Shown here in pieces: positions 1 through 64,000 of a DNA stretch of 64,000 nucleotides (position 1 is the first letter of the stretch; the number at the start of each line of letters is the position of its first letter). The DNA lies in the IMG/VR virus record IMGVR_UViG_3300002498_000029. One strand, 5' to 3'. Made by a program: the position numbers and the translations under genes. Under the pieces are notes generated by a model, which was given only the letters and a program-made list of their open reading frames with translations, made no database searches and had not been told where the DNA came from. The stretch comes from an uncultured virus (IMG/VR IMGVR_UViG_3300002498_000029) (taxonomy: Duplodnaviria > Heunggongvirae > Uroviricota > Caudoviricetes).

Positions 1-2
1 AT

Positions 3-479
3 GACATGTGCTTACAAAATAAACGAAACAATATCTTGTACAATCCCGCCAAAGGTTTATCTGATTTAATGCTTTTTAAGTAGAAACTGTAGCAGATTAC
101 TACAGACTATACATTTATACCTATTCAAAATATGTCACATACTCAAATTAGGAATATTATGTTATAGTCAAAGATATATATTGATTTTGGCAATCATCCT
201 GGAAAAGATAGAATTCCGAGAGAAGCAGCAATGTGTGGTTGTTGTATAATAACAGGCTGAAATGGGTCTGCTCAGTTTTTTGAAGATGTTAATATTGGTG
301 CACAATTTAAAATAAATATATAGGATAAAGATAACATCAATATGTTGATAAATACGCTAATCAATGTATCAACTAATGATTTTTATAAATATCATATGTA
401 GTTTTAGTATTATCGTAAACAAATAATGCTACAAAAATAGAAAATGATTTTTAACGTAAAATCTTTTTTTATTAGTTAA
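3..479 (+). CDS. Glycosyltransferase-like protein, 5' partial (recoded)
   Basis: Frame open to TAA 477 if TAG/TGA are sense; ILYNPAKG...KIYIDFGNHPGKDRIPREAAMCGC resembles a GT-B C-terminal motif. Confidence 0.65.
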
Positions 480-498
480 ATATTAATTTGGAGAAAAA

Positions 499-1212
499 AT
501 GTATATAATATATAGAATATCTGATTGTGGATATAATAAAGTTAAACCGAGTTACATTAATAATAAAATTTGTTTACAAAACGCATTAAAATAGTTCCCA
601 ATTAATATATGCAATTGACATATTATAGCAGATAATGTATCAGAGGAAACCAAAAGTATGTTATCAGAATACATACACAATAAAGATTTAATTGAATATG
701 TATCGGTAGGTCATGGAGCTGGTACCTTTAATGTAGCATTAGATTTTGCTAAAAATAGTATTAATAATAATCATTAGATAGTATATTTTCTGTAGAATGA
801 TTATTTACACAAACCTCAATCGTTAAAAATATTACAAGAGGGCTTTTCGTTGAACCCTATGTTTGTATCATTATATGACCATCCAGATAAATATATTCCA
901 CCTACATCAGGTGGTAATCCTTATTGTATTGATGGTGCAGAAGATACAAGAGTATATTTAACAAAATCTTGTCATTGAAAAATTACAAACTCTACAACAA
1001 TGACATTTGCTATTAAAAAAAGTAATTTAGCAATTGTAGAACTGATTTTAAGAAAACATACTTAGGGAACACACCCATATGATTTTGAAATGTTTATTGA
1101 GTTGATGTAGAATGGACATTTATTGATAACACCAATTCCAGGATATTCTACACATGGTGAAACAGCTTGATTAACACCCTTAACGGATTGGAGTCAAATA
1201 TGTTTAGTGTAA
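499..1212 (+). CDS. Glycosyltransferase (GT-A/GT2-like)
   Basis: GGAG RBS; VYFL(TAG)NDYLHKP, FVSLYDHPDKY, H(TGA)KITNSTTMTFA, PGYSTHGE. Confidence 0.7.
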
Positions 1213-1253
1213 TTATGCCAAAAAATATAATAATATAAAGGAGAAAAATATTT

Positions 1254-3198: not shown

Positions 3199-3214
3199 TT
3201 TGAAGGAGAAAATA

Positions 3215-4075
3215 ATGATAACAACAATTGGCATAATAGGACAAGGATTTGTAGGATCAGCAGTTTATAATGGTATGAAAGAATATTTCAACATATTAAC
3301 ATATGATATAGATCCATTAAAATTTAGTAACACATAGTCCTTATAGGAAATAATTACACAATCAAATATATGTTTTATTTGTGTTCCAACTCCAATGAAA
3401 AAAGATGGTAGATGTGATAAAAGTATTCTCATAAAGCTACTCAACTAGATAGATACAATATGTAGTATAGTAAATAAATAGATAATATTAGTTATAAAAT
3501 CAACTATCCCACCGGGAACAACGTAGTATCTTAATAATTAGTTTGAAAAATTACATATAGTGTTTAATCCATAGTTTTTAACATAGGCAAATGCTAATGA
3601 TGATTTTAAAAATCAAAATAGAATAATTATAGGTGGAGATAGACCATACTCTACTTAGGTAAAAAACATATATTCAATAGCATTCCCTGGAATACCTATT
3701 ATTAAAACTAGTTCAACAATAGCATAGTTGGTTAAATATATAACTAATACATTCTTAGCAATGAAAGTATCATTTTCAAATTAGATTTATCAGCTGTGTC
3801 AATAGATTAATCAAGATTATGATAAAGTAATTGAATATGCAACCTATGATGAAAGATTAGGTAAGACACACTGGACTGTTCCAGGTACAGATGGTGATCT
3901 TGGATATGGTGGACATTGTTTTCCAAAAGATATAGCAGCATTAAAAAATCTTATGGATAATTTAAATTTAGATACAACAATACTTACAGCAGTAATTAAA
4001 AAAAATGATTTAGTTAGAACTGATAGGAACTGAGAGAGACAAAAGGGCAGAGCTGTTTCAGAAGATTTTAATTAA
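3215..4075 (+). CDS. ugd: UDP-glucose/GDP-mannose 6-dehydrogenase family (short form)
   Basis: IGIIGQGFVG, FICVPTP, VIKSTIPPGT, FNP(TAG)FLT(TAG), A(TAG)LVKYITNTFLAMKVSFSN(TAG), GYGGHCFPKD. Confidence 0.92.
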
Positions 4076-4106
4076 TTGTGATAATTCCATAACTTCTAAT
4101 TATAAT
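4074..4106 (+). promoter_or_regulatory. Conserved promoter motif AATTGTGATAA-N16-TATAAT, copy 1
   Basis: TTGTGATAA 4076-4084, TATAAT 4101-4106; same spacing in four gene-upstream copies. Confidence 0.75.
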
Positions 4107-4141: not shown

Positions 4142-4444
4142 ATGATTACATTTGAACAGCAATAGTATAATGACGCTTTAGAATATATCAAATCTAAACT
4201 TAATTTAGATGAATTAGAATCATTAGATATAGATGATTAGATATTTAGAGCATTAAAAATATTAGATAAAATACAAGATGATAACTTTATATCATTATTT
4301 GAAGAACTAACAGAAAGATATGAAGATGAAGTTAGTGAATTAAAAGATGAGATTGACGAATTAACCGATGTAATTAGTACATTAGAAGATGTAATTAGTA
4401 CATTAAATGATGAAATTGATACTTTACATGAAAATATGTTTTAA
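4142..4444 (+). CDS. Hypothetical acidic coiled-coil protein
   Basis: GAGG RBS; two in-frame TAG, otherwise GAA/GAG; ends TAA. Confidence 0.65.
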
Positions 4445-4468
4445 CTATAAATAAAAAGAGGTTACAAA

Positions 4469-4702
4469 ATGAAAACATTATTAAATCAAATTCAACTAGA
4501 TCTAATAGATAAACTTATGCCACTAGTTTATACTGTTATGTCAACAACTATTTTAATTATCGTAACACTATTAACTTTATATAATACTGCTATATTAATA
4601 ATAAATAATGTATCTATACCTGAAAAGATTACTACTATTACTATTATAGTTTTAGTTACATTGATGTGGTCTTATTTTATTAAGCATTGTATTAAAAAGT
4701 AA
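4469..4702 (+). CDS. Hypothetical membrane protein (no recoded codons)
   Basis: ORF track; AGAGGTTACAA leader; two hydrophobic segments. Confidence 0.65.
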   Translation: MKTLLNQIQLDLIDKLMPLVYTVMSTTILIIVTLLTLYNTAILIINNVSIPEKITTITIIVLVTLMWSYFIKHCIKK

Positions 4703-4733
4703 TTGTGATAATTTTGCTGTATCTAAGTATAAT
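4701..4733 (+). promoter_or_regulatory. Conserved promoter motif, copy 2
   Basis: TTGTGATAA 4703-4711, TATAAT 4728-4733. Confidence 0.75.
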
Positions 4734-4763
4734 TAAATTAGATTATAAATAAGAGGTTACAAC

Positions 4764-5039
4764 ATGAAAAAGGCAATTAAAGTCTATAAACAAACTTATT
4801 ATGAAACAACTTGTCCTTATTGTAATGTTTATACTGTTTCTAGTCATGATAGAGATATTACTAAAGAAGAAATGGAATTACATATACAAGAGTGTGAATA
4901 TAATCCAGCAAATAAATATTGTAGAATATGTAAGTATTCAGAAATGATTATTCCTGGTGAATTTACATGTAAAAAAGAATTATGTGAAGATGGTGGATGT
5001 AAATCATTTAAACTAAAAAAAGTAAAAACTGGAGTATAA
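4764..5039 (+). CDS. Hypothetical Cys-rich (Zn-binding) protein (no recoded codons)
   Basis: CPYC, H...C, CRIC; AGAGGTTACAA leader. Confidence 0.7.
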   Translation: MKKAIKVYKQTYYETTCPYCNVYTVSSHDRDITKEEMELHIQECEYNPANKYCRICKYSEMIIPGEFTCKKELCEDGGCKSFKLKKVKTGV

Positions 5040-5040
5040 G

Positions 5041-5496
5041 TTGCAGACTTTTTTACCATACCAAAACTTTATACAATCTGCCAAGTGTTTAGATTATCGT
5101 AGACTTGGAAAGCAAAGGGTTGAAGCAAAACAACTTATAAATATATTAGAAGGTAAGAATACATCAAAGGCTTGGACGCATCACCCGGCTCTGCTTATGT
5201 GGAAAGGTTATACTGATACTCTTAAACTATATCATGATATAATGATTGCTGAATGGATAAATCGTGGTTACAAGAACACTATGCAATTATATTGTGGAAA
5301 TGTATGTAAGCAAACTCTTCTTACAGTAGATTATCAATTTTCTGGTAATTTTGAAAATCCAATATGGCTTAAAGATGAATTTTGTAGTTTCCATCGAGCA
5401 ACTTTACTTTATAAAAATTATGAATATTATAAACAGTTTAGTTGGACTGAAACACCTAAATATGAATATTTATGGCCAGTAAAAATAGCTAAATAA
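5041..5496 (+). CDS. Pyrimidine-dimer DNA glycosylase / DenV-related (MSMEG_6728-like) protein
   Basis: MQTFLPY..F..SA..LD.RRLGKQRVEAKQ...HPA.LMW.GY; TTG start; no TAG/TGA. Confidence 0.85.
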   Translation: MQTFLPYQNFIQSAKCLDYRRLGKQRVEAKQLINILEGKNTSKAWTHHPALLMWKGYTDTLKLYHDIMIAEWINRGYKNTMQLYCGNVCKQTLLTVDYQFSGNFENPIWLKDEFCSFHRATLLYKNYEYYKQFSWTETPKYEYLWPVKIAK

Positions 5497-5532
5497 ACTG
5501 TATAAGATATATAAAAAAAATAGGGAGTAAAA

Positions 5533-5751
5533 ATGTTTATATTTTGGTTAGGTATTATAATAGTACTATTTTTTGTAATTGGAATGCCAATAATTACCTT
5601 TATTTGGATGAGAATAGAAGACCCATTTAAATTTGGAAGCGATGATGACTTTTATGTTTTATGTGGATTCTTATGGATGGTAAGTATACCATTTGCAGTA
5701 TTTAAACAACTTGGTAAATATTTAGACAATAAAAAATTAAAAGGCAAATAA
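5533..5751 (+). CDS. Hypothetical membrane protein (no recoded codons)
   Basis: ORF track; GGGAG RBS; hydrophobic. Confidence 0.65.
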   Translation: MFIFWLGIIIVLFFVIGMPIITFIWMRIEDPFKFGSDDDFYVLCGFLWMVSIPFAVFKQLGKYLDNKKLKGK

Positions 5752-5752
5752 A

Positions 5753-6007
5753 GTGTAGTGTAAAGATATTTTATATTCAATATTATTTTAGACGTTTATT
5801 GATCTTTCATTATTTAATCCTAAAACAAGACTATTTCATTGGAATATTATAAACCCTATATACAAGTTTTTATTTTAGAAGTATAATTTATCAAAGAAAT
5901 AGGTAAATTTATAGTTAATTTAGACATATAAAGATAATAGATTTCAATATATGTTAATTGAAGGTATTCAATTATGGAAATAGCATTTTCATGAGGATGG
6001 TAAATAA
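5753..6007 (+). CDS. Hypothetical protein (TAG-recoded)
   Basis: GTG start, fills the gap exactly, ends at TAA overlapping next ATG. Confidence 0.5.
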
Positions 6008-6177
6008 TGGCATTATATCAATGTAAAAAATGTGGGTAGTATGTTTGCATATAGTCAACCAACGATCAACAAGAACATGAAAAAGTTTGCAAATCAGATA
6101 TAAAATTGATGTAGAAAAATGGATACATTAGAGAGTTAGAAGTAAATCGAATATTTAATTTCTTAACAGGGAGATAA
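6007..6177 (+). CDS. Small Zn-finger-like protein
   Basis: MALYQCKKCG(TAG)YVC...HEKVC. Confidence 0.55.
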
Positions 6178-6178
6178 T

Positions 6179-6388
6179 ATGAAGTGGACAAGATCTAAAG
6201 ATTATATAAACCGTATTGAATTTCACTCTGATAATACTAGTCGGATATTTATTGATACTCAATTTGATATGAATACATTACAACATTTCTATGTATTACA
6301 TGTCATTTATCCCAATTCTGCATTTGATTTAGAAACAGTATCAAAGAATTTAGCTTATCTTAAAAAGCTTGGCGTAGAATATAGTTAA
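6179..6388 (+). CDS. Hypothetical protein (no recoded codons)
   Basis: ORF track; GGGAG RBS. Confidence 0.6.
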   Translation: MKWTRSKDYINRIEFHSDNTSRIFIDTQFDMNTLQHFYVLHVIYPNSAFDLETVSKNLAYLKKLGVEYS

Positions 6389-6407
6389 ATAAAAAGAGGT
6401 TACAAAA

Positions 6408-6773
6408 ATGAATATATTAATTATTTTTACAGTAAGTCTTATTTTATCATATATTATTTTTAATATTAAACATTATTATGAATATAAAAAATCATATAAA
6501 CTATATAATAATATGTATAAATAGTTTTGTAGATAGCAATCTGATGAATAGTTATTAAATAATTATAAACTTATATTAGAATTATTATCAACAAAATAGT
6601 AGAATAAATTTAATGAATTAATAACAAAATATTCTACTATTGAACCGTATAGAATTAAACAATCAAGAAGTTCATACAAAAATTTTAGAAATCAAAGAAA
6701 ACTATCGTTTAATGTTTATTGTTTTGTATTATATTTACTTGGTAGATATTCATTCTAGACATTTAGATATTAA
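6408..6773 (+). CDS. Hypothetical protein with N-terminal TM segment
   Basis: AGAGGTTACAA leader; open to TAA with TAG as sense. Confidence 0.6.
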
Positions 6774-6793
6774 ATAAATAAAGAGGTTACAAA

Positions 6794-7312
6794 ATGAAAT
6801 TAAAACATGTTTTTATGAAAAGACACTTTACAAAGGATGATACATTTAGTCATGCGACCTTTCATCCAATACCAGAGAATAATATATATAACCGCTATCT
6901 TTGCCAACTTAGATTTGCTTGGCCAGAATTATACAATAGTGATGAAGGTAAAAGAGTAGAAAAGTTTTTAGATAAACTTTGGTTTGTTAATGATGACTAT
7001 ATTGGTAAAAATATTTGTGAATTCTGGATTATGGGTGATGGAACGGAAAAATACATACCAAATTTATCTAGACCCACGAATACTCCAATTAAGACTGTAA
7101 GAAGATTTAGAAAAGCTCTTAAAAACAAGTATTCCAAAATACTACCGAATGGTACTAAAATAATGATGGACTATAGATACCAAATTAAAATATCTGGAAA
7201 ATATCGAGATTGCGGTGTTCTAGGAACAATCAAAAACAATCTAACAGTTGAAGATAGTGAAAGAATAATCAGAAAGCAAATGAGTGATTATGTTAAAATT
7301 TATGGAAGGTAA
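6794..7312 (+). CDS. Hypothetical protein (no recoded codons)
   Basis: 172 aa ORF; AGAGGTTACAA leader. Confidence 0.8.
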   Translation: MKLKHVFMKRHFTKDDTFSHATFHPIPENNIYNRYLCQLRFAWPELYNSDEGKRVEKFLDKLWFVNDDYIGKNICEFWIMGDGTEKYIPNLSRPTNTPIKTVRRFRKALKNKYSKILPNGTKIMMDYRYQIKISGKYRDCGVLGTIKNNLTVEDSERIIRKQMSDYVKIYGR

Positions 7313-7314
7313 AA

Positions 7315-7545
7315 ATGAAAATAATAAGAATAGATAAAGCTAGAGATGGCGGTACAATTTGTTTTGAATATGAAGATGGACACGAACTTTATATTGATAA
7401 TAGAATAGGGTCAAGAACTACAAGTCAATTTTACGATGATTATCCTGAACATAAAAATGCAAAAATCGTAAGAATGACAAATGAAGATATACATAATCTT
7501 ATCTGTTGTATGATGGAATATTACCATAAACTGAAAAGTGATTAA
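7315..7545 (+). CDS. Hypothetical protein (no recoded codons)
   Basis: ORF track; RDGGTI...YIDNRIGS. Confidence 0.7.
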   Translation: MKIIRIDKARDGGTICFEYEDGHELYIDNRIGSRTTSQFYDDYPEHKNAKIVRMTNEDIHNLICCMMEYYHKLKSD

Positions 7546-7744
7546 GTACATATTGATGACGTGTAGTTTGTATTTACATAGAATGGTAATAAAATAATAG
7601 ATTATGTATTCATATAGTCAGATGGTGGATATTGATATATATAGGAAAGTGAGTTGTAGAGAACTGATAATGTATATACCTGAATTGATATGAAATAGTT
7701 GGTATAGACGGCAGTAAATAATCTAACATAAAATGAATATAGTT

Positions 7745-8278
7745 ATGAAACTAAAAGAATTGATAGATAGAAACCCAATATTCAACAAAGCTTATTTTTA
7801 TGAATGGTATTGTAGACCATAGGATGAAACAATAGATGACCCAGATGAGCATTATGAATCACACTTAGAAGTATTTAATAGACTTAAACAGATGAAACCT
7901 TACACCGGGCCAGGTGAATATCCAGCTAAGATAGCAATATGTTATATTTCAAAAGAATAGAATGATGATTGGGATTATAATGATGTGTATGGTTTAAGTT
8001 TAACCACGGATGAATCATATGCTATAGAATTTAGACCTTGGGCAGAATGGTTAGATATGGACATAGATGAAGAAACATTAAGTAATTATCTAGAATCAGA
8101 AATAATTGTTCATTGTATATGGGAAATGACATTTTGTGGTTATGATAATGATGATGTTCAATAGCAATGGAGTGGCATTGTGTGGAAATGTGATAAAATT
8201 AAATAGTCTAATATTGATGAGTTAATAGAAAGCGGTGAGATAATTCCGTTGAATTTTAATGATGATGAGGATGAATAA
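7745..8278 (+). CDS. Hypothetical protein (DUF6557-like)
   Basis: YAIEFRPWAEWL.M.I...EIIVHCIWEMTFCGYD; few TAG, Trp as TGG. Confidence 0.65.
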
Positions 8279-8868
8279 TGTTAGGATTTTTAGAAAGACG
8301 TAAAAAATAGTTATAGCAATTTGGAAAGACACTTCTAGGAGTTCAAGCCCTTTGTGAAAAAGTTAATAGTTAGTCATTTACAAAGGCACTAGCAATGAAT
8401 TTAGCTTTTAATAAACCTAGTTATGATCATTGGAGAGACCGCCTAGAACAAAAAATACTTAGTAATTTAATTTATGGCAAGTTAAAATAGTTGGATGATA
8501 GTATATAGTTAGCAGAATATCCATCTTTTAAATATAATGAAATTAACCACACTGTTATGACTAAAAAAACTCCATATGTTTTGCTAGATAAACCAGAATA
8601 TTATGTGTAGGATAATGAGTAGTGTTTACTAGCTATTGTGAATAGCTTGAACTATCATGAATTATTAGATGTTATGTATAAAGAAAGAGATGAGCTTAGA
8701 GGAATAAATTCTAATGCTAAAATATTTTTCTACACTATAAACATTGTGTCAGGCGTATTCTTAGATCCATATGCTGATAGTTTATCAGTACTAGATATTG
8801 GCATGCCGATTATGCTAAGATTTGCAATTGCGCGAGCTGGCAAGGTGCATAATGAAACCAATATATAA
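8278..8868 (+). CDS. Hypothetical protein
   Basis: TAATG overlap; extends track ORF 8638-8868 upstream through TAGs. Confidence 0.65.
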
Positions 8869-9250
8869 AATAGTCGATTAGGGTAATAATACTGTGATTG
8901 AATATCATGATAGTGTAAGACCTGATCCAGATGGAAATGGTGTTCAACGATATGGTGTTGGCGATAATGATGAAGGCGGTTGATACCATAATGAATACGA
9001 TAAAAACTTAACCGTAAAATGGGGTCTATTGCGTAATGATGTTAGTTATTTTGATGGTGATAAAGTTTCTGTTGTAATATATGATGGAAATGGTCCAGAT
9101 TATGGTGATAAAGTGTGTTAGGATTGTATAATAAAATATAATGAAGAAGAAGGATAGCTACAGATTTTTGATAATACAAATGGGGAGTATGTAGATTCTT
9201 TGAGTAATGTTTTATTTCAATATGGCTGGAGCCAAATTAAACATATATAA
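8852..9250 (+). CDS. Hypothetical protein
   Basis: Open to TAA with TAG/TGA as sense. Confidence 0.55.
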
Positions 9251-9259
9251 AGAGGAACA

Positions 9260-10456
9260 ATGATAAATAAAGAAACAATAAGAAACGATATTAAGTAGTC
9301 ATTAAAGATAATATAGAATAAATATTCTACTAGAATATAGTCATGTAAAATTGAATAGCCAAAAAATATTTTAATTACTGAATATACTGATTCTGAAATG
9401 ATAGATAAGCTTGTTGATGAAGGATATGAAAATTCACAAAATGACTATCAACTTAATAGTAGATGTTCTGCATAGGTTCATAAATGGTTGCTTAGTACTG
9501 AATTAGGTCGATTTATATCTTATATGAAATCTGAAAATTTTAATATAGTATTTAGTTCGGCGGCAGAATATATGAACACACTGCCAGTTTCATTTTATAT
9601 TCATAATGATTAGCACCTATTTGAGATTGCACAACTATTAAAATTACAGGGATATGATAAAATTGGAATATATTCAATACGATTAATATCTAGTTTATCC
9701 TTAGACTATAGCATTAAAACTATAATTAGAATACATACATTATCTACTTGTCCAATACTTACTAATAAAATAAATGATTATCGTAATAAAATATTAAAAT
9801 TAGATAATTCTATATTATTTTAGAATATACAAGATATTCATAGAAGATCTAAAATATTTATTAAAACATTATAGTTAGCTAATATTGAGATAGAATATAC
9901 AAAATAGTCTGTTCCGTGTTTCATGGTAAAAGATAAATTTGTAATTGCTAGAGGATATATTATTCCAGTTTAGAATTCTGATATTACAACATTTGTAGAA
10001 TAGAACTTTGTCAATAATGGAGTAAAGAAGATTATAATATCGCAAGCAAAGATATATCCTGATATGTTAGATAAAAATTTAAAAATATTTTAGATGTTTG
10101 TAATATGGATTCATGTAATAAATTATGATAAGTTGTTTATACAAGAATGGGAAAAAAAGAAGCATGAAGAGATTAGAACAGCTGTAGATACGACATCAAA
10201 AACTTTAAAATATTTAAAACTTATATCAAAATAGACTGTAGATAAAAATGAAATGGATGATTTACGATTTACTATGATTGAGTCTTTTATGACTACAATA
10301 CCAAGATAGTTTCTTTGTATGTCTGATGAATTTTGGGAAGAATATGATAAATGGAAAAAATCTAAAGAATCTAAATTAACTGGAATTCGTCATTATGGTT
10401 ATAATAGAGAAGATTATGTAAGTAATCATACTGTACTTCCGTGGGATATTACATAA
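9260..10456 (+). CDS. Hypothetical protein (~398 aa)
   Basis: GAGGA RBS; long frame with TAG as sense and TGG Trp. Confidence 0.65.
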
Positions 10457-10457
10457 T

Positions 10458-10718
10458 ATGAGAAAATGTAATCAATGCCATAGACGAGTAAAATATAATA
10501 TAGACTATTCATATATTTGTGTTAATAAGAATTGTATTGATTACAATAAAAAGTTGTATCTAATAGGATATAAATTTAGATCTAGTATAGATGAATTACC
10601 AGCAGTACACTACTATAATGTATATACAATGGATGAATAGGGAAAAACTCATAGTGGTGTATATGATGAATAGCAAAAACGTAAAGCTATACGGATTAAA
10701 AAAATAATTAAATTTTAA
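10458..10718 (+). CDS. Hypothetical Cys-containing protein
   Basis: Track ORF extended through TAG to TAA. Confidence 0.5.
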
Positions 10719-10753
10719 GATAAACTAGATATTTATATACATAGGAGTAATTT

Positions 10754-11164
10754 ATGGACCATTATGAACAAAATTTAATATGAACTTATACTACTAAAAT
10801 TGGTAAAGTATATATAAGAAAAACTTATAGTAAGTAGTTTTAGAAGTTATTAAAAAAACATAAAATACTTCCAGCTGCCACATATTATAATAAATCTGGT
10901 GATATTGTAGGATATGATTATAATTTTAATACTGATATTAAAAAATAGATATAGAAAGCGGTTAAAAAAGATAAACCCGCTAAAGTAATAAAAACTAAAT
11001 CGCCTAGTGTTAAAAAAGCAAAAGTAATAATAACTAAACCATTAAAAGACAAACCATTAAAAGACAAACCAATAAAAGACAAACCATTAAAAGTAGGTAG
11101 TAAATTAAAAAAGCCATCTAAGGAGGTAGTAAAAAATGACAGATCTAATAAAAAGACAAAATAA
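10754..11164 (+). CDS. Lys-rich protein with KP(L/I)KD repeats
   Basis: AGGAG RBS; very basic C-terminus. Confidence 0.65.
11036..11093 (+). repeat. 15-bp tandem repeat AAACCATTAAAAGAC, nearly 4 copies
   Basis: Directly visible; encodes KPLKD. Confidence 0.9.
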
Positions 11165-11588
11165 TACACCTAAGTGGGTATTACATTCACATCCATTCGA
11201 TCTATTATGAAAAAACTTATTTGATAATGATTCTATATTTGATACAGTATTTAATAGTAAAATTGATTATCCGTTAGATATTTATTAGACTGATAATGAT
11301 CTTGTAATATAGATTGCTGCAGTAGGATTAAGTAAATAGGATGTTAATATTGAAATTAAAAACAATAATTAGCTAATTATATCATATGATAGTACAGCTA
11401 AATAGTGTGAATAGAAAACATGTATTAAACGTGGAATAACTAGAAGAAGTTTTAATTTCGGATGAAAAGTTGCACCTACATATAACTTAAATAAAATAAA
11501 TGCATCACTATAGAAGGGATTATTAAAGATAAATATTCCAAGATCATAGGAAGATGTATCAATAACTAAAAAAATAGAAATACAATAA
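11136..11588 (+). CDS. Small heat shock protein, Hsp20/alpha-crystallin family
   Basis: AAGGAGG RBS; YPLDIY(TAG)TD..LVI(TAG)IAAVGLSK(TAG)DVNIEI...RGITRRSF...ASL(TAG)KGLLKINIP. Confidence 0.9.
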
Positions 11589-11619
11589 AATCTAAAATTA
11601 CTACCTACTTTTTGAAAAT

Positions 11620-11652
11620 AATTGTGATAAATCTGACAAAGGTGATTATAAT
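11620..11652 (+). promoter_or_regulatory. Conserved promoter motif, copy 3
   Basis: TTGTGATAA 11622-11630, TATAAT 11647-11652. Confidence 0.75.
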
Positions 11653-11683
11653 AAACTTAATTAAAGATTATAAGGAGACTATT

Positions 11684-12244
11684 ATGAAACAAGCAAATGT
11701 TATTAGAAATATGAGGAAGAATTCAAAGTTTTTGAATGAATCAATTATAGAAATAGTTGATATTATTTTAGATGTATTATATCAATATAGTAAAGAAGAT
11801 CAATTATTTATCAATGCATATGAAAATGACGATTTTGATGATATTGATTTATTTGATGATGACGACAATGCTATTGATGATAATGATAACTACCCTGATA
11901 CTAATGATACACTGGAAGGATATGGAAAATGTTTTGTTGATGATAGTGATATTGTAATTCAAACAAATCCATTAATATATGGAGAGTATTCTGAAGTAAA
12001 TGATTCTATGCCAATTGAGCTTCAAAATATCATTACATTTGAAGATCATGGTGTAAAGTTTGGTAAATTTACAAAGTTTGGCTCAGTAGAAGAATTTCTT
12101 GATAATGTAGAACAACTTTCAAAAAGAATTAGACCTAGTCGTGGAAATTTAACGGCTCCACAATTTAGGAACCTAGTAGAAGAATGGCGTCTTAATATGA
12201 TTGAAGATGCTATGAATAAAAACGGAATAGAACTTAGTATTTAA
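11684..12244 (+). CDS. Hypothetical acidic protein (no recoded codons)
   Basis: AAGGAG RBS favours ATG 11684 over track start 11612; Glu-rich but no TAG. Confidence 0.75.
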   Translation: MKQANVIRNMRKNSKFLNESIIEIVDIILDVLYQYSKEDQLFINAYENDDFDDIDLFDDDDNAIDDNDNYPDTNDTLEGYGKCFVDDSDIVIQTNPLIYGEYSEVNDSMPIELQNIITFEDHGVKFGKFTKFGSVEEFLDNVEQLSKRIRPSRGNLTAPQFRNLVEEWRLNMIEDAMNKNGIELSI

Positions 12245-12268
12245 ACTAATCTCAATTAGTTAAACGTA

Positions 12269-12308
12269 TACACAGGTTATATAATGATTTAAATATATAA
12301 CCTGTGTA
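12269..12308. terminator. 15-bp perfect inverted repeat (terminator-like hairpin)
   Basis: TACACAGGTTATATA-N10-TATATAACCTGTGTA after a gene end; no clear U-tract. Confidence 0.6.
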
Positions 12309-12388
12309 ATAATTTAAATGTAAGGAGATGCAAATGAAAATGACATTTAAACAACCTGTGTGGAATAATATAGTAAATAATAACTAAA

Positions 12389-12907
12389 ATGAAATACATT
12401 TTACCATTGGTAATAATGTTGATCATATTTCCACAGAATAATTATACCTCCACACAACAAGAAATACAGTATAATGAAGCTGATTTAAAAGAACAAAGAG
12501 ATATTCAAGATATATATAATTGTATTATTTCTTTAAAAAACGTAAATGATAAAAAACAAACTGATTTATATAAATTATCAACATCAATATTAAAATATAG
12601 TAAACAATTTAATATTGACTATAAAGTTTTAATTGGAATAGCATATGTAGAAAGTAGAATGAATAAATATGTAAGTTCTGGTAACAAGTATAAATGTATT
12701 GGAATATTTCAATTAAATGAAACTGTCCATAAATTAGATTCAAATTTAAAATATGATGAAGATTATCAAACACTAAAGGCTTGTGAAATATTAACTTATA
12801 CTATTAAAATGTATAAAGGTAATATTCAATCAGCTTTAAATGGATACAATGGATGGGCAAATGTAAATAATCCATATGCAAGTAAAGTGTTAAACGTAAT
12901 AAAATAA
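12389..12907 (+). CDS. Lytic transglycosylase (SLT domain) with N-terminal signal/anchor (no recoded codons)
   Basis: IAYVESRMN catalytic ES; GIFQL; ALNGYNG; YASKV. Confidence 0.85.
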   Translation: MKYILPLVIMLIIFPQNNYTSTQQEIQYNEADLKEQRDIQDIYNCIISLKNVNDKKQTDLYKLSTSILKYSKQFNIDYKVLIGIAYVESRMNKYVSSGNKYKCIGIFQLNETVHKLDSNLKYDEDYQTLKACEILTYTIKMYKGNIQSALNGYNGWANVNNPYASKVLNVIK

Positions 12908-12916
12908 GAAGGACGA

Positions 12917-51124: not shown

Positions 51125-51127
51125 ATA

Positions 51128-51925
51128 ATGATTAAATTAAAACAATTAATATTATAGACACAAAGTCATAAAATTGAATTAACGAAGTAGTAGTTTAGAT
51201 AGTTATTTAAATAGAATTGTAAAAATATTAAATATATAGATGATTGCGTATACCGTGGATGATGAACATCAGAACAATTTATTAAATTTCAATCATCATA
51301 TGCTGAAAGAATTTCTAGATGAGTACATGGTGGAGAGATGGACTCTTATTATAATTGATATTTATCTACATCAGATGATTGAAAAGAATTTCCAAGAAGA
51401 AATAAGAGTTTAATATGCACAACTGATATTGCTAATGCTAGTAATCGAGGTAAAATATTTTATGTATTTCCATATGATAATATATAGTGGGGTATATGCC
51501 CAAAAAAAGATATTTGATTTTCATTTGATACTTATTTATCTACTCTTACTAATACTAATTTTGTTGGTGCTGGAGTTTTATCAGATATAATGGAATAGTT
51601 ATCTAAATTACAAAATTATCCCAAATTAACACAGGATGATTTCAATTATACTACGTTTAAATAGAAATAGTTCTATTGAATTGATCAAATTTTAAATACA
51701 TCAGTATTTAAAAATAATGAATAGTATACACTTGAACAAAAAAATAAACTAATATACTATTTCTTTAAACAATTATTTAATCCACAAAGTAATTAGTTTT
51801 TAATAAGCACTAAACCATGAGATTATGAAAATAGAGAAGTGTGATCATAGGGACCATGTTTACTGATACAATATGGTAAATAGACTATGGATTATTTAAA
51901 ATAGTTAATAGAAGAAAATAAGTAA
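51128..51925 (+). CDS. MIKLK-leader protein, ART-like paralog 2
   Basis: VYRG, FPRRNKSLICTTD, ENREV(TGA)S(TAG)GPC. Confidence 0.6.
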
Positions 51926-52686
51926 TGATAAAATTAAAACAATTAATATTATAGTATAAATCAGCTACATCTGAAATATCTAAGTAGTAGTTTATATAGA
52001 TGTTTGAAGATAATTGTTATAATATTAAACATCTAAATAATTATGTATATAGGGGCATACCGTCTAATGCGCGGTATCTATATTTTAATTCTAAGAAAAC
52101 CACTATATAGCGACCGTCTTCAATTTAGCATTCACAAAATATTTTAAAGACGGAAAGCTTTTATAATTGGTATATGTCTAATTCTTAGGATTGAAAAAAT
52201 TATCCTAAAAGAAATAAAAGTCTAATATGTAGTACTTCTACAAAATATAATAGATTATACGGAAATAGATATATAGTTATTCCATTTAATAATACAAAAT
52301 GAGGCATATGTCCAGCGGATGATTTGTGAGATAGTTTTCATAATAAAATACTCTTTACTGATTTATTACAATAGTTGTCTTCTCATGACTTATTAAAAGA
52401 TATATATCCATATTTAGATTAGAATAGTATTAATTCAATTAATATTAATGATTTAGATCCAATTAAATATTCTGAATTATTTAAAATATTTGATAGATAT
52501 TATGGTAAAACTAACTGATAGAAATTTAAATGGTTTTGAAATCCTCAAAATACTGGTTTTTAGGTAAGTTAGACTCCATGAGAATATGATAATAGATAGG
52601 TTTGAACTTAGGGGTCTTGTATTTTATTTAAACAGAATATATATAATATAAAACTTTTAGAATAGTTAATATAGGAAAATAATTAA
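51925..52686 (+). CDS. MIKLK-leader protein, ART-like paralog 3
   Basis: VYRG, YPKRNKSLICSTS, DNR(TAG)V(TGA)T(TAG)G. Confidence 0.6.
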
Positions 52687-53420
52687 TGATTAAATTAAAA
52701 TAGATAATAATCAAATAGGGTATAAATGATCCTAATATATTTAAAGCAATATTTATCTTAGGTAGTCCAGCTAGTGGCAAATCAACATTAGCTAAAAAAA
52801 TATTAGGGAGATAGAAATTAAAACAACATGATGTCCATAATATGTATTTATCGTTTAGCCCTACTGGATTAAAGTATTTAAATATAGATGATGTATTCTA
52901 GAGATTATTATTAACTACTAAATCTAAAACAAATTTTAACTAGCTTACAGAGGAATAGTATAAATAGTTAATATCTGCACCAGATTCTAAATATAATAGA
53001 GCTAGTAGATTAACTAATATAAGAAGAAATAATTATGTATAGGCTAGACTTGGATTAATTATTGATAAGACTGGAGCTAATGCAGATAAAATAGCAGATC
53101 AAGTATAGTAGTTATAGTATTTAGGATATTAGTGTTTTTGTATTTATATTAGTTCAGATTTATAGGAAGCAATTACTAGAAATATGAATAGGTTATAGAG
53201 AAGATTAAAAGAATAGGATATTGTTAATTGTTGAACTAGAGTTAATTAGAATAAAGAATAGTTGCAATAGATATTTGGATATAATAATTTTTATAATTTT
53301 ATTAATAATAAATATTATTAGTAGCAAATATCTTTATTGAATAAAAAAATATCTGCATTTTTAAATAAACCAATAACTAATAATATTGCATTAAATTGGA
53401 TATAGAGTCAATATGATTAA
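52686..53420 (+). CDS. Zeta-toxin/AAA_33-like P-loop kinase with MIKLK leader
   Basis: FKAIFILGSPASGKST; LNIDD; GLIIDKTG; AITRNMNR..R. Confidence 0.8.
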
Positions 53421-54192
53421 ATTAAGATAGCTAATATTATAGGCTTCAATACCATATAATAAAATATCAAGTAAAAAATTTTAGTAGTTATTTAATACTA
53501 ATTGTAAAAACATAACAAGTTTAGATCAAGTAGCATATAGAGGTATGCGTAATATTGGTAAAACAGGGTTATTTATACCGACTAATTCAATTAGAAAATC
53601 TTATAAACATAAAAATTATAAGACGGATTCTTTTTATAATTGGTATTTATCTAATAGCCCTAGTTGAAAATAGTATCCTAAGCGAAATAAAAGTATTTTT
53701 TGCATGACTAATTATAATGATGTAACCGGTTATTATGATCCGACTGAGCAAAAAATATATATTGTGATACCATACGATAATGTATAGTTTGGAGTTTGTT
53801 CAGAATTTGATTTAGCCCTCTCTTTTAAAGACTTTAACGTCGTTGGATTAAGTAGGTGGTTATTAAAGTTATTATAGGATTTATAGTTGTTGTTTATATT
53901 AGAATCAACAGATACTATACAAGGAATATAGACTATGTCAAATACAATAAAAAATGATTAGACTATTGATAAATCTTATTATTCATATGTCTTTTAGCGA
54001 GTTAAAAAATATAATACATTTAAAAATTTTATATTAACAACATTTAGTCCAAGATATAATTAGTTTAAACTAACAACTGATTTGAGTTCATTTAATAATA
54101 ATTAGATTTGATCTTAGGGGCCATGTTTACTATTACAACATACTGATTAGAATATAGAATATTTACAACAGCTGATAACTAAAAATACTTAA
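53413..54192 (+). CDS. MIKLR-leader protein, ART-like paralog 4
   Basis: AYRG, YPKRNKSIFCMT, N(TAG)I(TGA)S(TAG)GPC. Confidence 0.6.
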
Positions 54193-54237: not shown

Positions 54238-54639
54238 ATGAAAAAAGCTATTAAGTTTAAGATATATAAGAAACTAAGAGAAATAAAGAATAGAAAATTA
54301 AATATTTTATCAGTATAGATGAAATAGAGAATGACTATACCATATAACAATTGAAGAAAACATGTATTTGAAAGAGATAATTATCAATGCCAAATATGCG
54401 GCAGATCTCATATAAGATTATAGGCTCATCATATTAAATCATTTAAGTTATTTCCAAATATAAGACTCGATATAAATAATGGTATAACATTATGTTCAGC
54501 TTGTCATTATATGTTTCATAAAAAATATAGTAAAGTAATATTTCCAAATATAACTACTATATGATAGGATAAATTAATAGTTAAAAAATTTAAGGATAAA
54601 GTAAATAATGAAAAAAAATTAGTTGAAATAGTTAATTAA
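54238..54639 (+). CDS. HNH endonuclease
   Basis: (TGA)RKHVFERDNYQCQICG...L(TAG)AHHIK...NNGITLCSACH..FH. Confidence 0.9.
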
Positions 54640-59439: not shown

Positions 59440-60027
59440 ATGATACAAGCAACATACGATCAACTTAAAACAATAGCAACTCGCAAATCATATAAATGAT
59501 TTACAGATATATACGATTTAAACGTATGGGGTATAAGAAATTCAAGTAGAATAGCTAATGCCTTTGATGATACTTTAGCCATAGCATATATAGATGCCAA
59601 TAAAAACAAAAGAATATTTACATGCCCAATGACAGTTGACCCAGGATTATATTACTTAAAGAACCCATTAAACCACAAGGGTTGTGCAATTATACCAGAA
59701 GGACAATACTTAGGTTTATGAATACTAGGACTACATAAAGGTTATACTGCATTAGCCCAAAGAAAAGCTATTAAAGTATTTAGAGATAATGATAAAAATA
59801 ATTAGTTGGGTGGGCAATTACAAACAATCTAGTAGCTAGGCGGGTTTAATTTACATAGAGCTTTATAGAATGGAATAACTAATACAGTAGATAAATTTAG
59901 TGCTGGTTGTCAAGTAGTACAAATACCAGAAGATTTTAATTATGTAATATCACTAGTAAAGCTTCAAGACAAATATATTAAATCTAAAATAGTATCTTAT
60001 ACACTTATATCAGAAAGGGAACTTTAA
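59440..60027 (+). CDS. Putative peptidoglycan-active Cys enzyme (YkuD/L,D-transpeptidase-like), endolysin candidate
   Basis: LNVWGIR...FDD...TVDPG...GQY...GLHKG...RDND...GFNLH...SAGCQV. Confidence 0.65.
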
Positions 60028-60033
60028 TAATAA

Positions 60034-61335
60034 ATGATAACTTCATCAATATAGATTTGAAACAAGTTAAATATAGTAGGTAATACTAGTGATCTTCCAT
60101 AGATATGATTATCTGATATACAAGATTCAATATATTATGATTCAGATTATCCATATAAATGAAATGTATTCTAGATGGATATTTAGTATTTAAGATTATT
60201 TATAAATGATGGGTATTCTGGAAATATTAGTTCTACATATGAATCAGGTAGTGATTATACTAGTGTAATATTTAATCATTTAAAATAGTGTTATATATAG
60301 AGACCTGTTGCATTAAGTGCTACTAATATAACTGATGTTAGCTTTACTGCTAATTGAAGTAGTGTTGTTGGTGCTACTAGTTATTAGATTGATATTGCTA
60401 CTGATAGTTTATTTAGTAATATTATACAAAGAATTAGTTGTGGTAATGTGATATTATATAATGTTACTGGGTTAACTAGTAATACTACTTATTATTATAG
60501 AGTGAGAAGTATTAGTAGTGGTGGAGTTAGTGGAAATAGTGAAGTGGTAACACAACTTACATACGCCACTGGAGCGCCTGCTTACTTTGCTAGAATGACA
60601 ACTCAAGGTGATACAACATATAAGGCCAAAATAAGTAGTTTTATTGGTGCATTAGAAAGTGCAGGTGTTTGAGCATCATTAGATTCATTACACTTATTTG
60701 CCAATAAGGACGATTACACAGATAATATACCGGCTTCATTTATAAATATGATAAACCCAACTGATACTATAGCGGCTAGAACAGGAGTTAGTGGTTCAAA
60801 TTTGACGTATACTACAAATCAGGGGTGGTTGGGAGCCTCCAATGCTGCTATTGATTTAAATCAATTATTAACTAATAGAGCAAAATATAGTTTAAATAGT
60901 GGCTCTATGTTTGTCTATGTTTATACAACCACCGCAGCAGGATATGTGGCATAGATTGGAACTTATATTGGAGCATCTCAAGCATCTATAATGGATTGTA
61001 GAGTTGATGGTGATAAGATGAGACTTTACCTCAATGGTGGTATGTCTGATACCGTGAATGCATTACCTGGTGCCGGAGTTGGGCTTTTCTCTCTTAATAG
61101 GACTGCTGCAAATAACATAGATGTTTACAAAAATGGTACTTTCGTGGAGTCTCTGGCAAATAATAGCAGCGCAATCCCAACCGGTAATGTCTATGCATTG
61201 GCAGCTAATATAAACAATGTCATCGCCAATACAGCTACTGGTCGGAGAATATCTCTATGTGGATTTGGTGCACAAATGGATGCTACCAAGCAAGCTGCAC
61301 TCTATGCGGCATTTATGACATATCTAACAGGATAA
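60034..61335 (+). CDS. Tail/adhesin protein with Fn3 domain and LamG-like C-terminus
   Basis: ATNITDVSFTAN(TGA)SSVVGATSY...VTGLTSNTTYYYRVR; joins three track ORFs. Confidence 0.8.
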
Positions 61336-61369
61336 TATACATAATTAATCATACTGGAATATATAACTA

Positions 61370-64000
61370 ATGCAAAAAAACGATAAATACATTGTAGACA
61401 TAAAAACATATGATAAATCACTAACGGATAGTGGTTCATTTCCATATACTCATGGTTTAACTACATAGTAGTCTGCTAGAGTAGTAGCTAAAATGAAACT
61501 AGAAGATGATACCTTTATTAATATTAGTGGATCACAATAGTTAGTACCAGCTAATGGATCATTAGTAAGAGTATTATCATTTGATTTTGAACCACATAAA
61601 GGTTATGATACTATTTTAACTATGAATGATTATGATACAGGTTCTGGTAATATGTATAGTAGTAGAGTTATAAAATATTAGTATGGATCAATAAATGTTT
61701 ATAATTAGAATAATATTAGATTAACTTCTAGTATATTATCATATACTTATGGTAGATAGGATTCTAATACTATTCCATTAAATACTAGAGGTAATTGTTA
61801 TGTTTAGTTAGATACATTATTTAGTGTTAAAGGTAATATTATATTAGGAACTACTTCTAGTAATTATAGTATTAGATCATTAAGAGGATTTAATGTCAAT
61901 TTTAGTTATAGTGGTAGCACAGATAGAACTAACTTTATGAGGTAGTTGTCATATTTAAATGATATTAAATCAACTTGATCTTATTCATAGTTATGCCAAT
62001 TTAGTTGGGGTATGTATTATGGTAGAGTAATAACTGATCCTAGTGCTAGTGTATAGACTGGCAGTGCAAGATTATTATACAATCAAATTTAGAATTTAGA
62101 CTTAATACCATATACTAAATTTTTATGGTATGGTTAGGCTGGTACAGTTGTTAGTCAAAGTAGAGTTAGTAAAATATATAGTATAAATACTGGTAGTGTA
62201 GTAGACGGTACAAGTTCTGGTATTTATAGACCATATTATGCTGGTACTATTGCTCCAATTTAGAAAAATAATTTATTAGTAGACTATTCTTCATCTCAAT
62301 ATTATTATATAAGTCATTCAAATATATCATTTGGAACTACTTCTCCTTGAACATTAGTTTCAGTTATTGGTTGACATGGACCTAAAGTATATAATGCTAA
62401 TGGAGTATAGACCCAATTAGTATATGGTAATAATGGTTCAGCAATAAATTTATCAGTATCTGGTAGTACCAAAATTCAAATATCATCATCAACAGTAAAT
62501 AGATAGTTTTTAACTAATACTTCTATTAAGAATTATCTTGCAACTAGAGCTATGATAGCAATTACATATGCTGGTGATGTGAGTGGATCTACTACTACTT
62601 ATTTTAATGGAGTTAGCCAATCAGTATCTACAGGTTCTAGATATGCTTTTGACTTTAGTGGATTCTTAAGTGGAACAGGTACTAGTACTAATAATTATTT
62701 AGGTAGATATTATTATCACCATATTATTAGTAAATCTTTATCACAAGATGAAATAACTGCTCATTATAATGTACTTAGATCATATTATCCTTAGATTTAG
62801 TCAGTAAATATAACTACTCAAAGTTGATCAACTCATAATTTAGGTGTAGTTTCAGATAGAAGCGGAAGTGTTATAAATAATGTTAATTGAACAAGTTCTG
62901 TAGTTACTAGCGGAGTATGTAGTTCATCACTATTTGACGATTCTGATTTATATACATAGTCTGGAACAACATAGGTAATTGATGGTATTGGTTATTTTAC
63001 AGCGTCAAATAATACATATATTACAAAATCATATACTGGTCATTCATTATTGAATAATTATTATTTATTATCAGCTAAATGTTAGTCGTGAGATACTGGT
63101 TCTGCAAAATTTATAATAGGAACAGTTTCATCATCTATATTTGTACCAACTGCTAGTAATATACATTCATATTATATAAAAGCTAATACTGCTAATAGTT
63201 CATTTGGTATTGGTGGTGTAGATTATTTAAGCGGATCATTTAGCAGTATGTCAATATCAAGAATAGGCTGAAACGACATAGGTAACTTATACTCATACTT
63301 AATAACAACAGGTTCATACACTCACTATGATGCTTTAAAATAGTGTGCAGCTTGAAGATATTATAATGATGATGCAAATACCTATGCATTATATGGTAAA
63401 CTATATAATAAATATGCTAAAATGTTAATCTAGTCCTACCCACCATTATGTACATCTCCTACTTCAGCATCATATGTACCTATGTATCAAATACCATTAT
63501 TAGATGGTACTGGTATAAATACTTTAAAAACATATTCAGGTTCAACATTAAGAGTATCAAATTCACTATACTGATCTTCATCAATAAATGATACTAATAC
63601 TACAGGATTATCTTTAATTGGATCAGGATGATGTGATGCTACTGGATCATTTAGACATGCTACTCAAAGATGTTACTTATGATCAAGAAATGTAACTTCA
63701 TCAACATATTTGCCCATAACTTCATCAATAGGATAGAATAGACCATATATAATTTGAAGAAGTTCTAGTTTTATTACTGATGGAGATGATTCAACAACTT
63801 AGGGATATGCTATAAGATTAGTAGATACAGGTATAGATTATAATATAATAAATAATTATACTAGTAGTTAGTGTAAAGATAAATTAAATAGAATAACATA
63901 TGATATAGAGGGTTTAACTGCTAGCTTAATGACTTATTATAATAGTAGTGTAAATGGATCAATTATACCAACATAGATAAACTTTAGGAACTTTAGTAGT
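61370..64000 (+). CDS. Large protein with LamG-like and FISUMP (Fibrobacter succinogenes major paralogous)-like domains, 3' partial
   Basis: QS(TGA)STHNL...AA(TGA)RYYNDD..TYALYGKLYN.YA...GLSLIGSG...G.F...YL(TGA)S...GYAIRLV. Confidence 0.75.

Follow-up and report, generated by a model that had tools for sequence, protein, structure and literature searches.

What do TAG and TGA mean in a viral genome whose genes are open only when neither codon is read as a stop? The question is raised by an uncultured virus of the Caudoviricetes (Duplodnaviria; Heunggongvirae; Uroviricota), IMG/VR record IMGVR_UViG_3300002498_000029, of which a stretch of 64,000 nucleotides (nt), hereafter the window, was analyzed. 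The window has a guanine plus cytosine content (GC) of 25.3% and represents about a quarter of its source contig, whose length is 256,585 bases in the record of the sole match to the gene at 6794-7312. An initial annotation, made from the letters of the window, had proposed that TAG is Glu, TGA is Trp and TAA is the only stop. The observation behind this proposal is confirmed by our analysis, and the proposed meaning of the codons is supported: as far as statistics of the sequence can show, TAG reads as Glu, TGA as Trp and TAA as stop. To the wider reading, namely a jumbo phage with this code in a host that uses the standard code, with suppressor tRNAs supplied by the phage and with blunted release factors, we assign a probability of roughly 0.8. 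Within this reading, the meaning of the codons is demonstrated to the extent just stated, and we infer the host code and the decoder.

Reading frames and codon meaning

Under the standard code (NCBI table 11), open reading frames (ORFs) of at least 100 amino acids (aa) span 9% of the window when both strands are counted, and 7.0% of the plus strand. Coverage of the plus strand rises to 14.1% with TGA as a sense codon (as in table 4), to 60.2% with TAG as a sense codon (as in table 15), and to 94.5% with TAA as the sole stop, which is the comparison of codes that the initial annotation had suggested. Read in the last way, the window contains 73 ORFs of at least 100 aa, all on the plus strand, the longest of 1198 aa; in 20 mononucleotide shuffles, coverage averaged 6.6% and the longest ORF averaged 152 aa. 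The claim that the genes tile tightly when TAA alone terminates stands, with 51 of the 71 gene junctions no longer than 20 nt and many genes overlapping by 1 or 8 bases. A ribosome-binding motif of the GGAG/AGGA type lies upstream of 39 of the 72 starts. In the 72 genes TAA is absent in frame by construction, and the two remaining frames have it 56 and 81 times per 1000 codons; TAG is enriched in frame, at 45.9 per 1000 codons compared with 27.3 and 32.1 out of frame. TAG and TGA together are evenly distributed along the genes, with shares of 5.0% in the first 15 codons, 5.1% in the last 15 and 5.6% in between. Of the 18 genes with homologues, 11 have alignments that extend to 4 residues or less from the end defined by TAA. 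Genes that are broken under table 11 and restored when stops are read as sense characterize recoded phages, and the window, with its increase from 7.0% to 94.5%, behaves as one of them.

The meaning of the two codons was read from alignments to relatives. Genes were translated with X at every TAG and TGA before alignment, and therefore the alignments cannot favour any residue at these positions. At least 40 relatives were aligned, comprising 38 IMG/VR loci, four longer contigs taken whole and, as complete genomes, Microcystis phage Mel-JY01 and Flavobacterium phage immuto; with no stop in 74,150 subject residues, these relatives use the standard code. At the 327 TAG positions aligned in 18 genes, the relatives have E in 27%, D in 10%, K in 9%, S in 8%, N in 6%, T in 6% and Q in 5% of cases. 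This profile resembles that of the GAA control codons in the same alignments (E 34%, D 13%, K 10%) and differs from that of the CAA controls (Q 20%, E 14%, K 12%). When likelihoods were computed from residue-to-residue frequencies learned on sense codons in these alignments, TAG was best read as Glu, and Gln lay 34.4 nats behind; the SbcCD-like gene alone accounts for 11.6 of these. Among conserved TAG columns, defined by at least 75% agreement among at least four relatives, 27 of 41 are Glu and none is Gln. TAG columns are thus neither mainly Gln nor random, two of the outcomes that the initial annotation had named as contradicting Glu, and the tally of aligned residues gives Glu for TAG and Trp for TGA. 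Mel-JY01 taken alone has Glu at the same rate opposite TAG (69 of 269) and opposite GAA (17 of 58). For TGA, the 38 aligned positions are W in 34% and Y in 11% of cases, with Trp as the best reading and Tyr 23.1 nats behind. In addition, in an unrelated family common to jumbo phages (LR756508.1, RsoM2USA, Atu_ph07), W is aligned with TGA in 61 of 133 cells, and TGG, which stands at variable positions there, has L as its commonest aligned residue (17 of 48); the cells of this family are not independent, since several paralogues were compared.

Individual sites lead to the same assignment. The codons singled out by the initial annotation (TAG at 3572, 3584, 17775, 21045, 16830, 16848, 32980, 1590 and 2782; TGA at 17307, at 60355 and in the 'NN-TGA-RKHVFERD' site of the HNH endonuclease) are all in frame and have the peptide context claimed for them. 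Several of its family Glu sites hold as well: TAG encodes the TOPRIM Glu of the primase, which is Glu in six of six relatives, the Walker B Glu of the Rad50-like ATPase (three of three) and the Glu of the gp25 G-E-R motif (31 of 31). At the second gp25 site (P-x-FG) the relatives vary (N 15, E 8, T 6, D 2). TGA encodes the zinc-finger Trp of the primase, which is Trp in six of six relatives as had been expected, and the Trp assumed for the Fn3 domain is favoured over Gly by the Pfam fn3 score (Table 1). In alignments to proteins of solved structure, TAG falls on the NPEFLxE, AE..KY and N-E motifs of UDP-glucose dehydrogenases, and on Walker B D-E and the signature SGGE of archaeal Rad50.

Protein-family scores and overall composition were also compared between the readings. 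The Pfam bit score is higher with TAG as Glu than with TAG as Gln in 17 of 20 protein-family comparisons, the net gain being about 34 bits over the 19 comparisons scored both ways, and DNAG_N reaches the reporting threshold with the Glu reading only. TGA as Trp gains about 22 bits net over TGA as Gly (for example, 65.3 vs 58.9 for GT2). Over 4,808 aligned positions, Glu makes up 6.9% of the residues of the relatives, and the window has 1.6% GAA plus GAG and 6.4% TAG. At the same positions, Gln without TAG amounts to 3.3%, compared with 3.4% in the relatives, and Trp to 0.5% plus 0.6% TGA, compared with 0.8%. From gene to gene, the use of TAG decreases as that of GAA and GAG increases (rho -0.39, p 8e-4), and is unrelated to the use of CAA and CAG (rho +0.12, p 0.31).

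The exchange of codons is visible inside the window too. Alignments of its own paralogues contain 21 GAA-TAG pairs and 22 GAA-GAA pairs, and 15 TGA-TGG pairs and 10 TGG-TGG pairs. In eight genes sharing the N-terminus MKKSELKQLIKE, position 5 is TAG in four, GAA in three and GAC in one, and the Glu that closes the motif is written TAG in five genes and GAA or GAG in the other three.

Standing among known codes

NCBI table 31 (Blastocrithidia nuclear) reads TGA as Trp, TAG as Glu and TAA as both Glu and stop, and UAG is Glu in tables 30 and 31. The window agrees with table 31 in TGA and TAG but not in TAA, which does not serve as Glu inside its genes (TAA-bounded ORFs tile the strand); moreover, the one code is eukaryotic and the other belongs to a phage. 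Table 4 shares TGA as Trp with the window and keeps TAG as a stop, against 913 in-frame TAG codons and a coverage of 14.1%. Table 15 differs in both codons, with TAG as Gln, which is 34.4 nats worse, and TGA as a stop, against 177 in-frame TGA codons and a coverage of 60.2% instead of 94.5%. Two further meanings were rejected. For TGA as Gly (table 25), Gly is outside the top aligned residues at TGA, and Pfam scores are about 22 bits better with Trp. Pyrrolysine normally occurs at few TAG sites, whereas TAG makes up 4.6% of the codons of the window, fills its Glu deficit and occupies catalytic Glu residues.

In the available text of Borges et al. (10.1101/2021.08.26.457843), TGA aligns best with Trp and TAG with Gln, and these are the sole reassignments given for phages whose code differs from that of the host. 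There, the two outcomes are explained by the tendency of glutaminyl-tRNA synthetase (GlnRS) and tryptophanyl-tRNA synthetase (TrpRS) to charge suppressor tRNAs, and a suppressor tRNA matching the recoded codon is found in only 35-40% of cases. The accessible part of another study (PMC12386605) describes Zeta crAss-like phages as using 'either TGA or TAG', even with both suppressor tRNAs present, and Lera as carrying suppressor tRNAs for TAG and TGA and using TGA only; in contrast, the window phage uses both codons, 913 and 177 times, respectively. To the extent of their available text, these two sources bear out the statement of the initial annotation that recoded phages use TAG as Gln or TGA as Trp singly. 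Its statement that TAG as Glu is known from eukaryotes agrees with what the available text of PMC10553269 reports for the ciliate Oligohymenophorea sp. PL0344, in which UAG alone, uncoupled from UAA, has become Glu and is read by suppressor tRNAs; unlike in the window phage, UAA is Lys and UGA is a stop in this eukaryotic nucleus. A 2026 survey of 10,754 jumbo phages is described in its accessible part as testing a single recoded stop at a time. In the literature searched, which leaves most subscription journals outside, no phage or prokaryote with TAG as Glu was found, and none with two reassigned stops.

As far as the accessible descriptions go, alternatively coded phages (crAss-like, Lak, Jade, Agate and others) share with the window phage the fragmentation under table 11, a low GC, a preference for TAA, the presence of some unrecoded genes, and, where TGA is concerned, its meaning as Trp. 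However, they reassign one stop, with TAG as Gln, whereas in the window two stops are reassigned in the same genes and TAG is Glu. In the window phage, unlike in those phages, the recoded codons are the majority codons, and recoding is as heavy in replication genes as in structural ones. The Escherichia coli strain 'Ochre', according to the accessible text of PMC11903333, also has a single stop codon; it was engineered by genome-wide recoding together with changes of factors, whereas the window phage is natural and viral.

With its meaning of TAG and its two simultaneous and very dense reassignments, the code of the window appears to be new among phages, on the evidence of one contig from one sample. 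If true, it would be the first amber-to-glutamate reassignment and the first double stop reassignment described in any prokaryotic system. A phage with TAG as Glu would break the explanation of phage recoding outcomes by GlnRS and TrpRS charging. In addition, two stops reassigned at such a density would imply a near-total loss of release factor (RF) action at two codons, for which E. coli needed extensive engineering according to the available account of that work. Gene callers limited to tables 11, 4, 15 and 25 will shred or mistranslate genomes of this kind. Recoded relatives may be nearly invisible in a large protein collection; the protein of the gene at 6794-7312, the sole gene looked up, matched only itself among 5.8 billion clustered proteins. 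If the decoding parts are recovered, they would represent a natural Glu-charging amber suppressor system and a termination regime based on UAA only.

Uneven codon use, decoding and host

Among the 19,849 codons of the genes, TAG occurs 913 times, GAA 448, GAG 69, TGA 177 and TGG 90 times. TAG thus represents about 64% of the Glu codons overall, and 70% outside a block of low use (Table 1), and TGA represents about 66% of the Trp codons. The maxima per gene are 91 TAG, in the SbcCD-like gene (1041 aa), and 15 TGA. The base that follows TAG or TGA shows the same distribution as the base behind ordinary codons. Under neutral drift, TAG and GAA would be near parity, as the two codons have equal G+C and T and A are similarly frequent. 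Outside the block, TAG exceeds the other Glu codons by 2.3:1, and therefore we infer selection for TAG.

The block of low use covers about 9 kb. Compared with its counts, the rest of the window has 175 TGA vs 60 TGG (Fisher p 7e-13) and 866 TAG vs 373 GAA plus GAG (p 7e-31). Since its GC (0.259) and its GC at third codon positions (0.161) equal those of the rest (0.254 and 0.165), the block is native to the phage and was not recently imported. Both TAG and TGA are missing from five genes, and the chance of this at the overall rate ranges from 6e-3 to 3e-5 per gene. Uneven codon use and genes compatible with the standard code, which are typical of recoded phages, are thus both seen in the window, yet its primase and nuclease are heavily recoded. 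A two-step switch, TAG first and TGA later, was considered for the stronger depletion of TGA than of TAG in the block, and the counts are too small to claim it. A sigma-70-like element, ATTGTGATAA-N16-TATAAT, has four copies on the plus strand against 0.03 expected; three of them precede genes of the low-recoding block, and the fourth precedes the primase and nuclease pair, which ranks with the most heavily recoded genes. A ribosome-binding stretch, AAGAGGTTACAA, is also repeated four times, at 4456, 4751, 6394 and 6781.

In the reading that we prefer, the host is probably a bacterium with the standard code and Shine-Dalgarno-led translation. The genes free of TAG and TGA and the block of low use would be translatable on arrival, and the remaining genes, including the primase and the recombination nuclease, would need tRNA-Glu(CUA) and tRNA-Trp(UCA). 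Such suppressor tRNAs would most likely be encoded on the remaining approximately 190 kb of the contig and be expressed very early. RF1 would have to be kept off UAG and RF2 off UGA, with termination at UAA retained, by means that the phage is predicted to provide; this blunting is predicted because a read-through of 95% at each of 91 TAG codons would leave less than 1% of full-length product (0.95^91). The heavy load of TAG and TGA would lock most phage genes until the code is switched. The indirect pathway of Gln synthesis on tRNA could offer another route to Glu at UAG, in which a suppressor derived from tRNA-Gln is charged by a non-discriminating glutamyl-tRNA synthetase (GluRS) and ignored by the amidotransferase. 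That all of these elements come together, i.e., a natural one-stop code unlike that of the host, switched on after infection by phage tRNAs and the blinding of RF1 and RF2, with TAG driven to be the preferred Glu codon as a genome-wide lock, is a proposal whose chances we consider evenly balanced.

The relatives provide some clues to the origin of such tRNAs. An immuto genome (MW353176.1, L068:1918-2326) has adjacent genes for tRNA-Ser(UGA), tRNA-Glu(UUC) and tRNA-Gln(UUG), of which the Glu and Gln tRNAs are possible raw material for suppressors, and Mel-JY01 carries tRNA-Leu(UAA). A relative of 94,980 bases (G001), about 30% identical and using the standard code, carries a well-formed tRNA(CUA) (L045:3417-3488, minus strand; 67 bits in Rfam), and 13 of its 118 ORFs of at least 100 aa terminate with TAG. 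This tRNA(CUA) has a mean column identity of 71% to the immuto tRNA-Glu and tRNA-Gln, with no clear parent. The same relative has a transfer-messenger RNA-like ARAGORN call (L044:12954-13316, minus strand) that may be false. As for the window, Rfam gives no match at the gathering score, and by E-value it gives one weak match in 4400-7800, which is snoRNA-like (small nucleolar RNA) and of chance level (E 0.23). ARAGORN run with introns and a lowered threshold produced 120 calls, obviously false. RNA genes in the apparent gaps (5496-6408 and others) were discarded, small ORFs being found there instead.

The reality of the sequence was checked on Logan contigs, which are assembled per run. Four DNA runs contain the sequence, each at a depth of about 3-5, and all of them come from one sample of a single study, labelled a hydrocarbon metagenome; no RNA run is listed among the runs holding it. 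Separately assembled contigs from the four runs cover 13001-33000 without a differing letter, and 168 of 170 Logan contigs are at least 99% alike. This agreement is between assemblies of one sample and is not independent replication. In run X3, one Logan contig links 20530 to 25165, skipping 4634 bases, with a side of 21 bases, and single contigs have loose ends at 20499, 21738, 21779 and 25185; we take the join and the loose ends as assembly joins at short repeats. One of these loose ends carries the promoter-like motif AATTGTGATAAAT, which suggests that the motif has further copies elsewhere in the genome.

Several results count against the preferred reading. Conserved TGA columns are Trp in only three of nine cases. 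TAG is noisy from gene to gene: in the 14 genes with at least five aligned TAG, Glu is best in nine, Gln in three (by 0.2, 0.2 and 3.8 nats), Asp in one and Thr in one. Pfam favours Gln for Fn3_assoc (1.0 bit), Zeta_toxin (1.0 bit) and AAA_33 (2.5 bits). The sequence comes from one sample (four runs, one study), at low depth and as contigs only. The window holds no tRNA according to ARAGORN, and no release factor or aminoacyl-tRNA synthetase according to Pfam and PHROGs, though it comprises only 64 kb. No relative with the same code was found in the collections searched, and absence there does not prove a unique lineage: protein-level scans yielded 38 loci from IMG/VR and 21 from metagenomes, none of them more than 37% identical and all in the standard code (the 21 metagenome loci without a stop in 97 alignments), a degenerate gp25 motif specific for TAG had no match in viral, metagenome and genome contig collections, and blastn against GenBank phages gave one match of 156 bases. 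Finally, because the fourth promoter-like copy lies before the recoded primase, the published scheme, in which early genes keep the standard code and late genes are recoded, applies only in part and the division is not clean, which leaves room for a host that itself reads these codons.

The cases favouring Gln might be taken to mean that TAG is mainly but impurely Glu, for example a mixture of Glu and Gln produced by a tRNA-Gln-like suppressor, a non-discriminating GluRS and partial amidation. Gln does fit slightly better in 3 of 14 genes and in 3 of 20 Pfam comparisons; however, these are weakly conserved structural proteins with small margins, the 41 conserved TAG columns contain 27 Glu and no Gln, and the Gln content equals that of the relatives without TAG, whereas Glu is short by about the share of TAG. 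We therefore regard such a mixture as improbable. A combination of the published codes, TAG as Gln (table 15) and TGA as Trp (table 4), is more improbable still. TAG as Gln is the sole amber reassignment reported for phages in the available text of the literature searched, and TAG as sense lifts coverage to 60% by itself, but against this code stand the deficit of 34.4 nats, the 5% of Q vs 27% of E opposite TAG, the absence of Q from all 41 conserved columns, and the catalytic Glu residues written as TAG; it would also give about 7.4% Gln and 2.6% Glu, compared with 3.4% and 6.9% in the relatives. We attach next to no weight to an artefact, be it systematic G-to-T errors in GAG, a faulty assembly or a phage that has decayed and lost its function. 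The single sample, low depth and reliance on contigs would be compatible with one, whereas the four separately assembled runs agree over 20 kb with no differing letter, no TAA stands in frame among the 19,849 codons, and the ORFs remain collinear with their homologues up to the ends. Miscalled GAG in particular is ruled out because it would imply 982 GAG to 448 GAA, against ratios of 1141:249 for AAA:AAG and 493:65 for CAA:CAG; such errors would neither explain TGA nor spare the five genes free of TAG and TGA.

The main rival concerns the host. The phage may mirror a host that itself reads TGA as Trp, and perhaps TAG as Glu, and may bring little or no machinery of its own. This would agree with a window lacking tRNAs, with a heavily recoded primase and nuclease operon that lies behind the same type of promoter-like element as the low-recoding genes, and with the ordinary following-base context of TAG and TGA, which behave as common sense codons. 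On the other hand, five genes avoid both codons and a native block of 9 kb strongly prefers TGG and GAA, a pattern of avoidance that weakens this rival. Moreover, the cultured relatives infect hosts with the standard code, Microcystis and Flavobacterium, and the 2026 gTranslate paper, in its accessible part, handles tables 11, 4 and 25 for prokaryotes and otherwise mentions only UAG-to-pyrrolysine in Archaea, as a recent addition. We consider a mirrored host code unlikely, though less so than any of the alternatives above, and retain a standard-code host with phage-borne decoding as the preferred reading.

Gene content and phage type

The features referred to above and the other recognizable genes are collected in Table 1.

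Table 1. Position of genes, promoter-like sites and shared N-termini in the window, with their use of TAG and TGA
Feature	Position	Strand	Remarks
Recoded gene array	1..64000	+	about 72 genes, open only with TAA as sole stop
UDP-glucose/GDP-mannose dehydrogenase-like	3200..4075	+	conserved Glu encoded by TAG
Promoter-like site, copy 1	4075..4106	+	ATTGTGATAA-N16-TATAAT
Low-recoding block	4142..13543	+	TGA 4 vs TGG 31; TAG 57 vs GAA+GAG 151
Promoter-like site, copy 2	4702..4733	+	ATTGTGATAA-N16-TATAAT
TAG/TGA-free gene	4764..5039	+	91 aa, Cys-rich
TAG/TGA-free gene	5041..5496	+	pyrimidine-dimer glycosylase-like
TAG/TGA-free gene	6794..7312	+	172 aa, ORFan
Promoter-like site, copy 3	11621..11652	+	ATTGTGATAA-N16-TATAAT
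TAG/TGA-free gene	11684..12244	+	very acidic protein
TAG/TGA-free gene	12389..12907	+	SLT lytic transglycosylase domain
Baseplate wedge gp25-like	16689..17084	+	12 TAG, 2 TGA
Promoter-like site, copy 4	17084..17115	+	upstream of heavily recoded primase gene
DNA primase	17142..18092	+	TOPRIM Glu is TAG, zinc-finger Trp is TGA
Mre11-Rad50 (SbcCD-like) fusion	18093..21218	+	91 TAG, 4 TGA; Walker B and signature Glu are TAG
Baseplate wedge gp6-like	22636..24435	+	33 TAG, 3 TGA; query for finding relatives
RusA-like resolvase	32794..33147	+	PHROGs RusA; TAG at 32980
Four tail-fibre-like paralogues	36299..40705	+	TAG alternates with GAA in 'VNENFL' stretch
Internally repetitive protein	40708..42225	+	'IK-TAG-RL' in 9 repeats; 'I.ERL' (GAA/GAG) in 4
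Paralogue family, phrog_12810-like	49404..54192	+	rich in TGA at Trp columns
HNH endonuclease	54238..54639	+	TGA at 'W-RK..F.RD' position
Fn3-containing protein	60034..61335	+	fn3 31.4 bits with TGA as W, 23.5 with TGA as G
MKKSELKQLIKE-type N-termini	21358, 21738, 22190, 54608, 55063, 56311, 56781, 16154		
MIKLKQLILE-type N-termini	49404, 50176, 50573, 51128, 51925, 52686, 53413, 58031		

Searches of Pfam and PHROGs identified gp25-like and gp6-like baseplate wedge proteins, a primase, Mre11-Rad50, RusA, an HNH endonuclease, an endolysin-like protein, tail-fibre-like paralogues and sugar-modifying enzymes. Judged by GPW_gp25 and by baseplate and replication homologues of cultured phages, the window comes from a large tailed phage (at least 256 kb) of the myovirus type. 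The baseplate wedge protein used as query is 39.6% identical to that of Mel-JY01 (190 kb), 35.5% to that of the immuto phages (160 kb) and 33.8% to that of an uncultured 484-kb phage, LR756508.1; among cultured phages, Mel-JY01 and the immuto phages are the nearest. These three share the baseplate, the primase, the SbcCD-like nuclease and other genes with the window phage. They use the standard code and have a GC of 30-37%, whereas the window phage is recoded and has a GC of 25%.

The SbcCD-like gene combines an Mre11-like nuclease and a Rad50-like ATPase in one protein of 1041 aa. Since the corresponding open frames of relatives are 1058 and 1062 aa long, the Mre11-Rad50 fusion is common to the lineage. 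The four tail-fibre-like paralogues stand in tandem and are 357-372 aa long. They conserve 'YTQDMHTVNENFL' in the N-terminal part and diverge in the C-terminal part, and are probably exchangeable tail fibres that bind receptors. The gene that follows them encodes a protein of 505 aa with about 20 degenerate repeats of about 17 residues ('..IYT.IKERL.Y....') and an N-terminus rich in Trp, written as TGA; it has no match in Pfam or PHROGs.

An N-terminus of 10-12 residues that ends in (L/I)-I-x-Glu is common to about 16 genes that differ otherwise, and this Glu is often TAG. We take the shared N-terminus to resemble the capsid-targeting leader of the internal proteins of T4, which the prohead protease cuts after L/I-x-Glu. 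If the likeness to the T4 leader holds, the proteins bearing it would be packed into the head.

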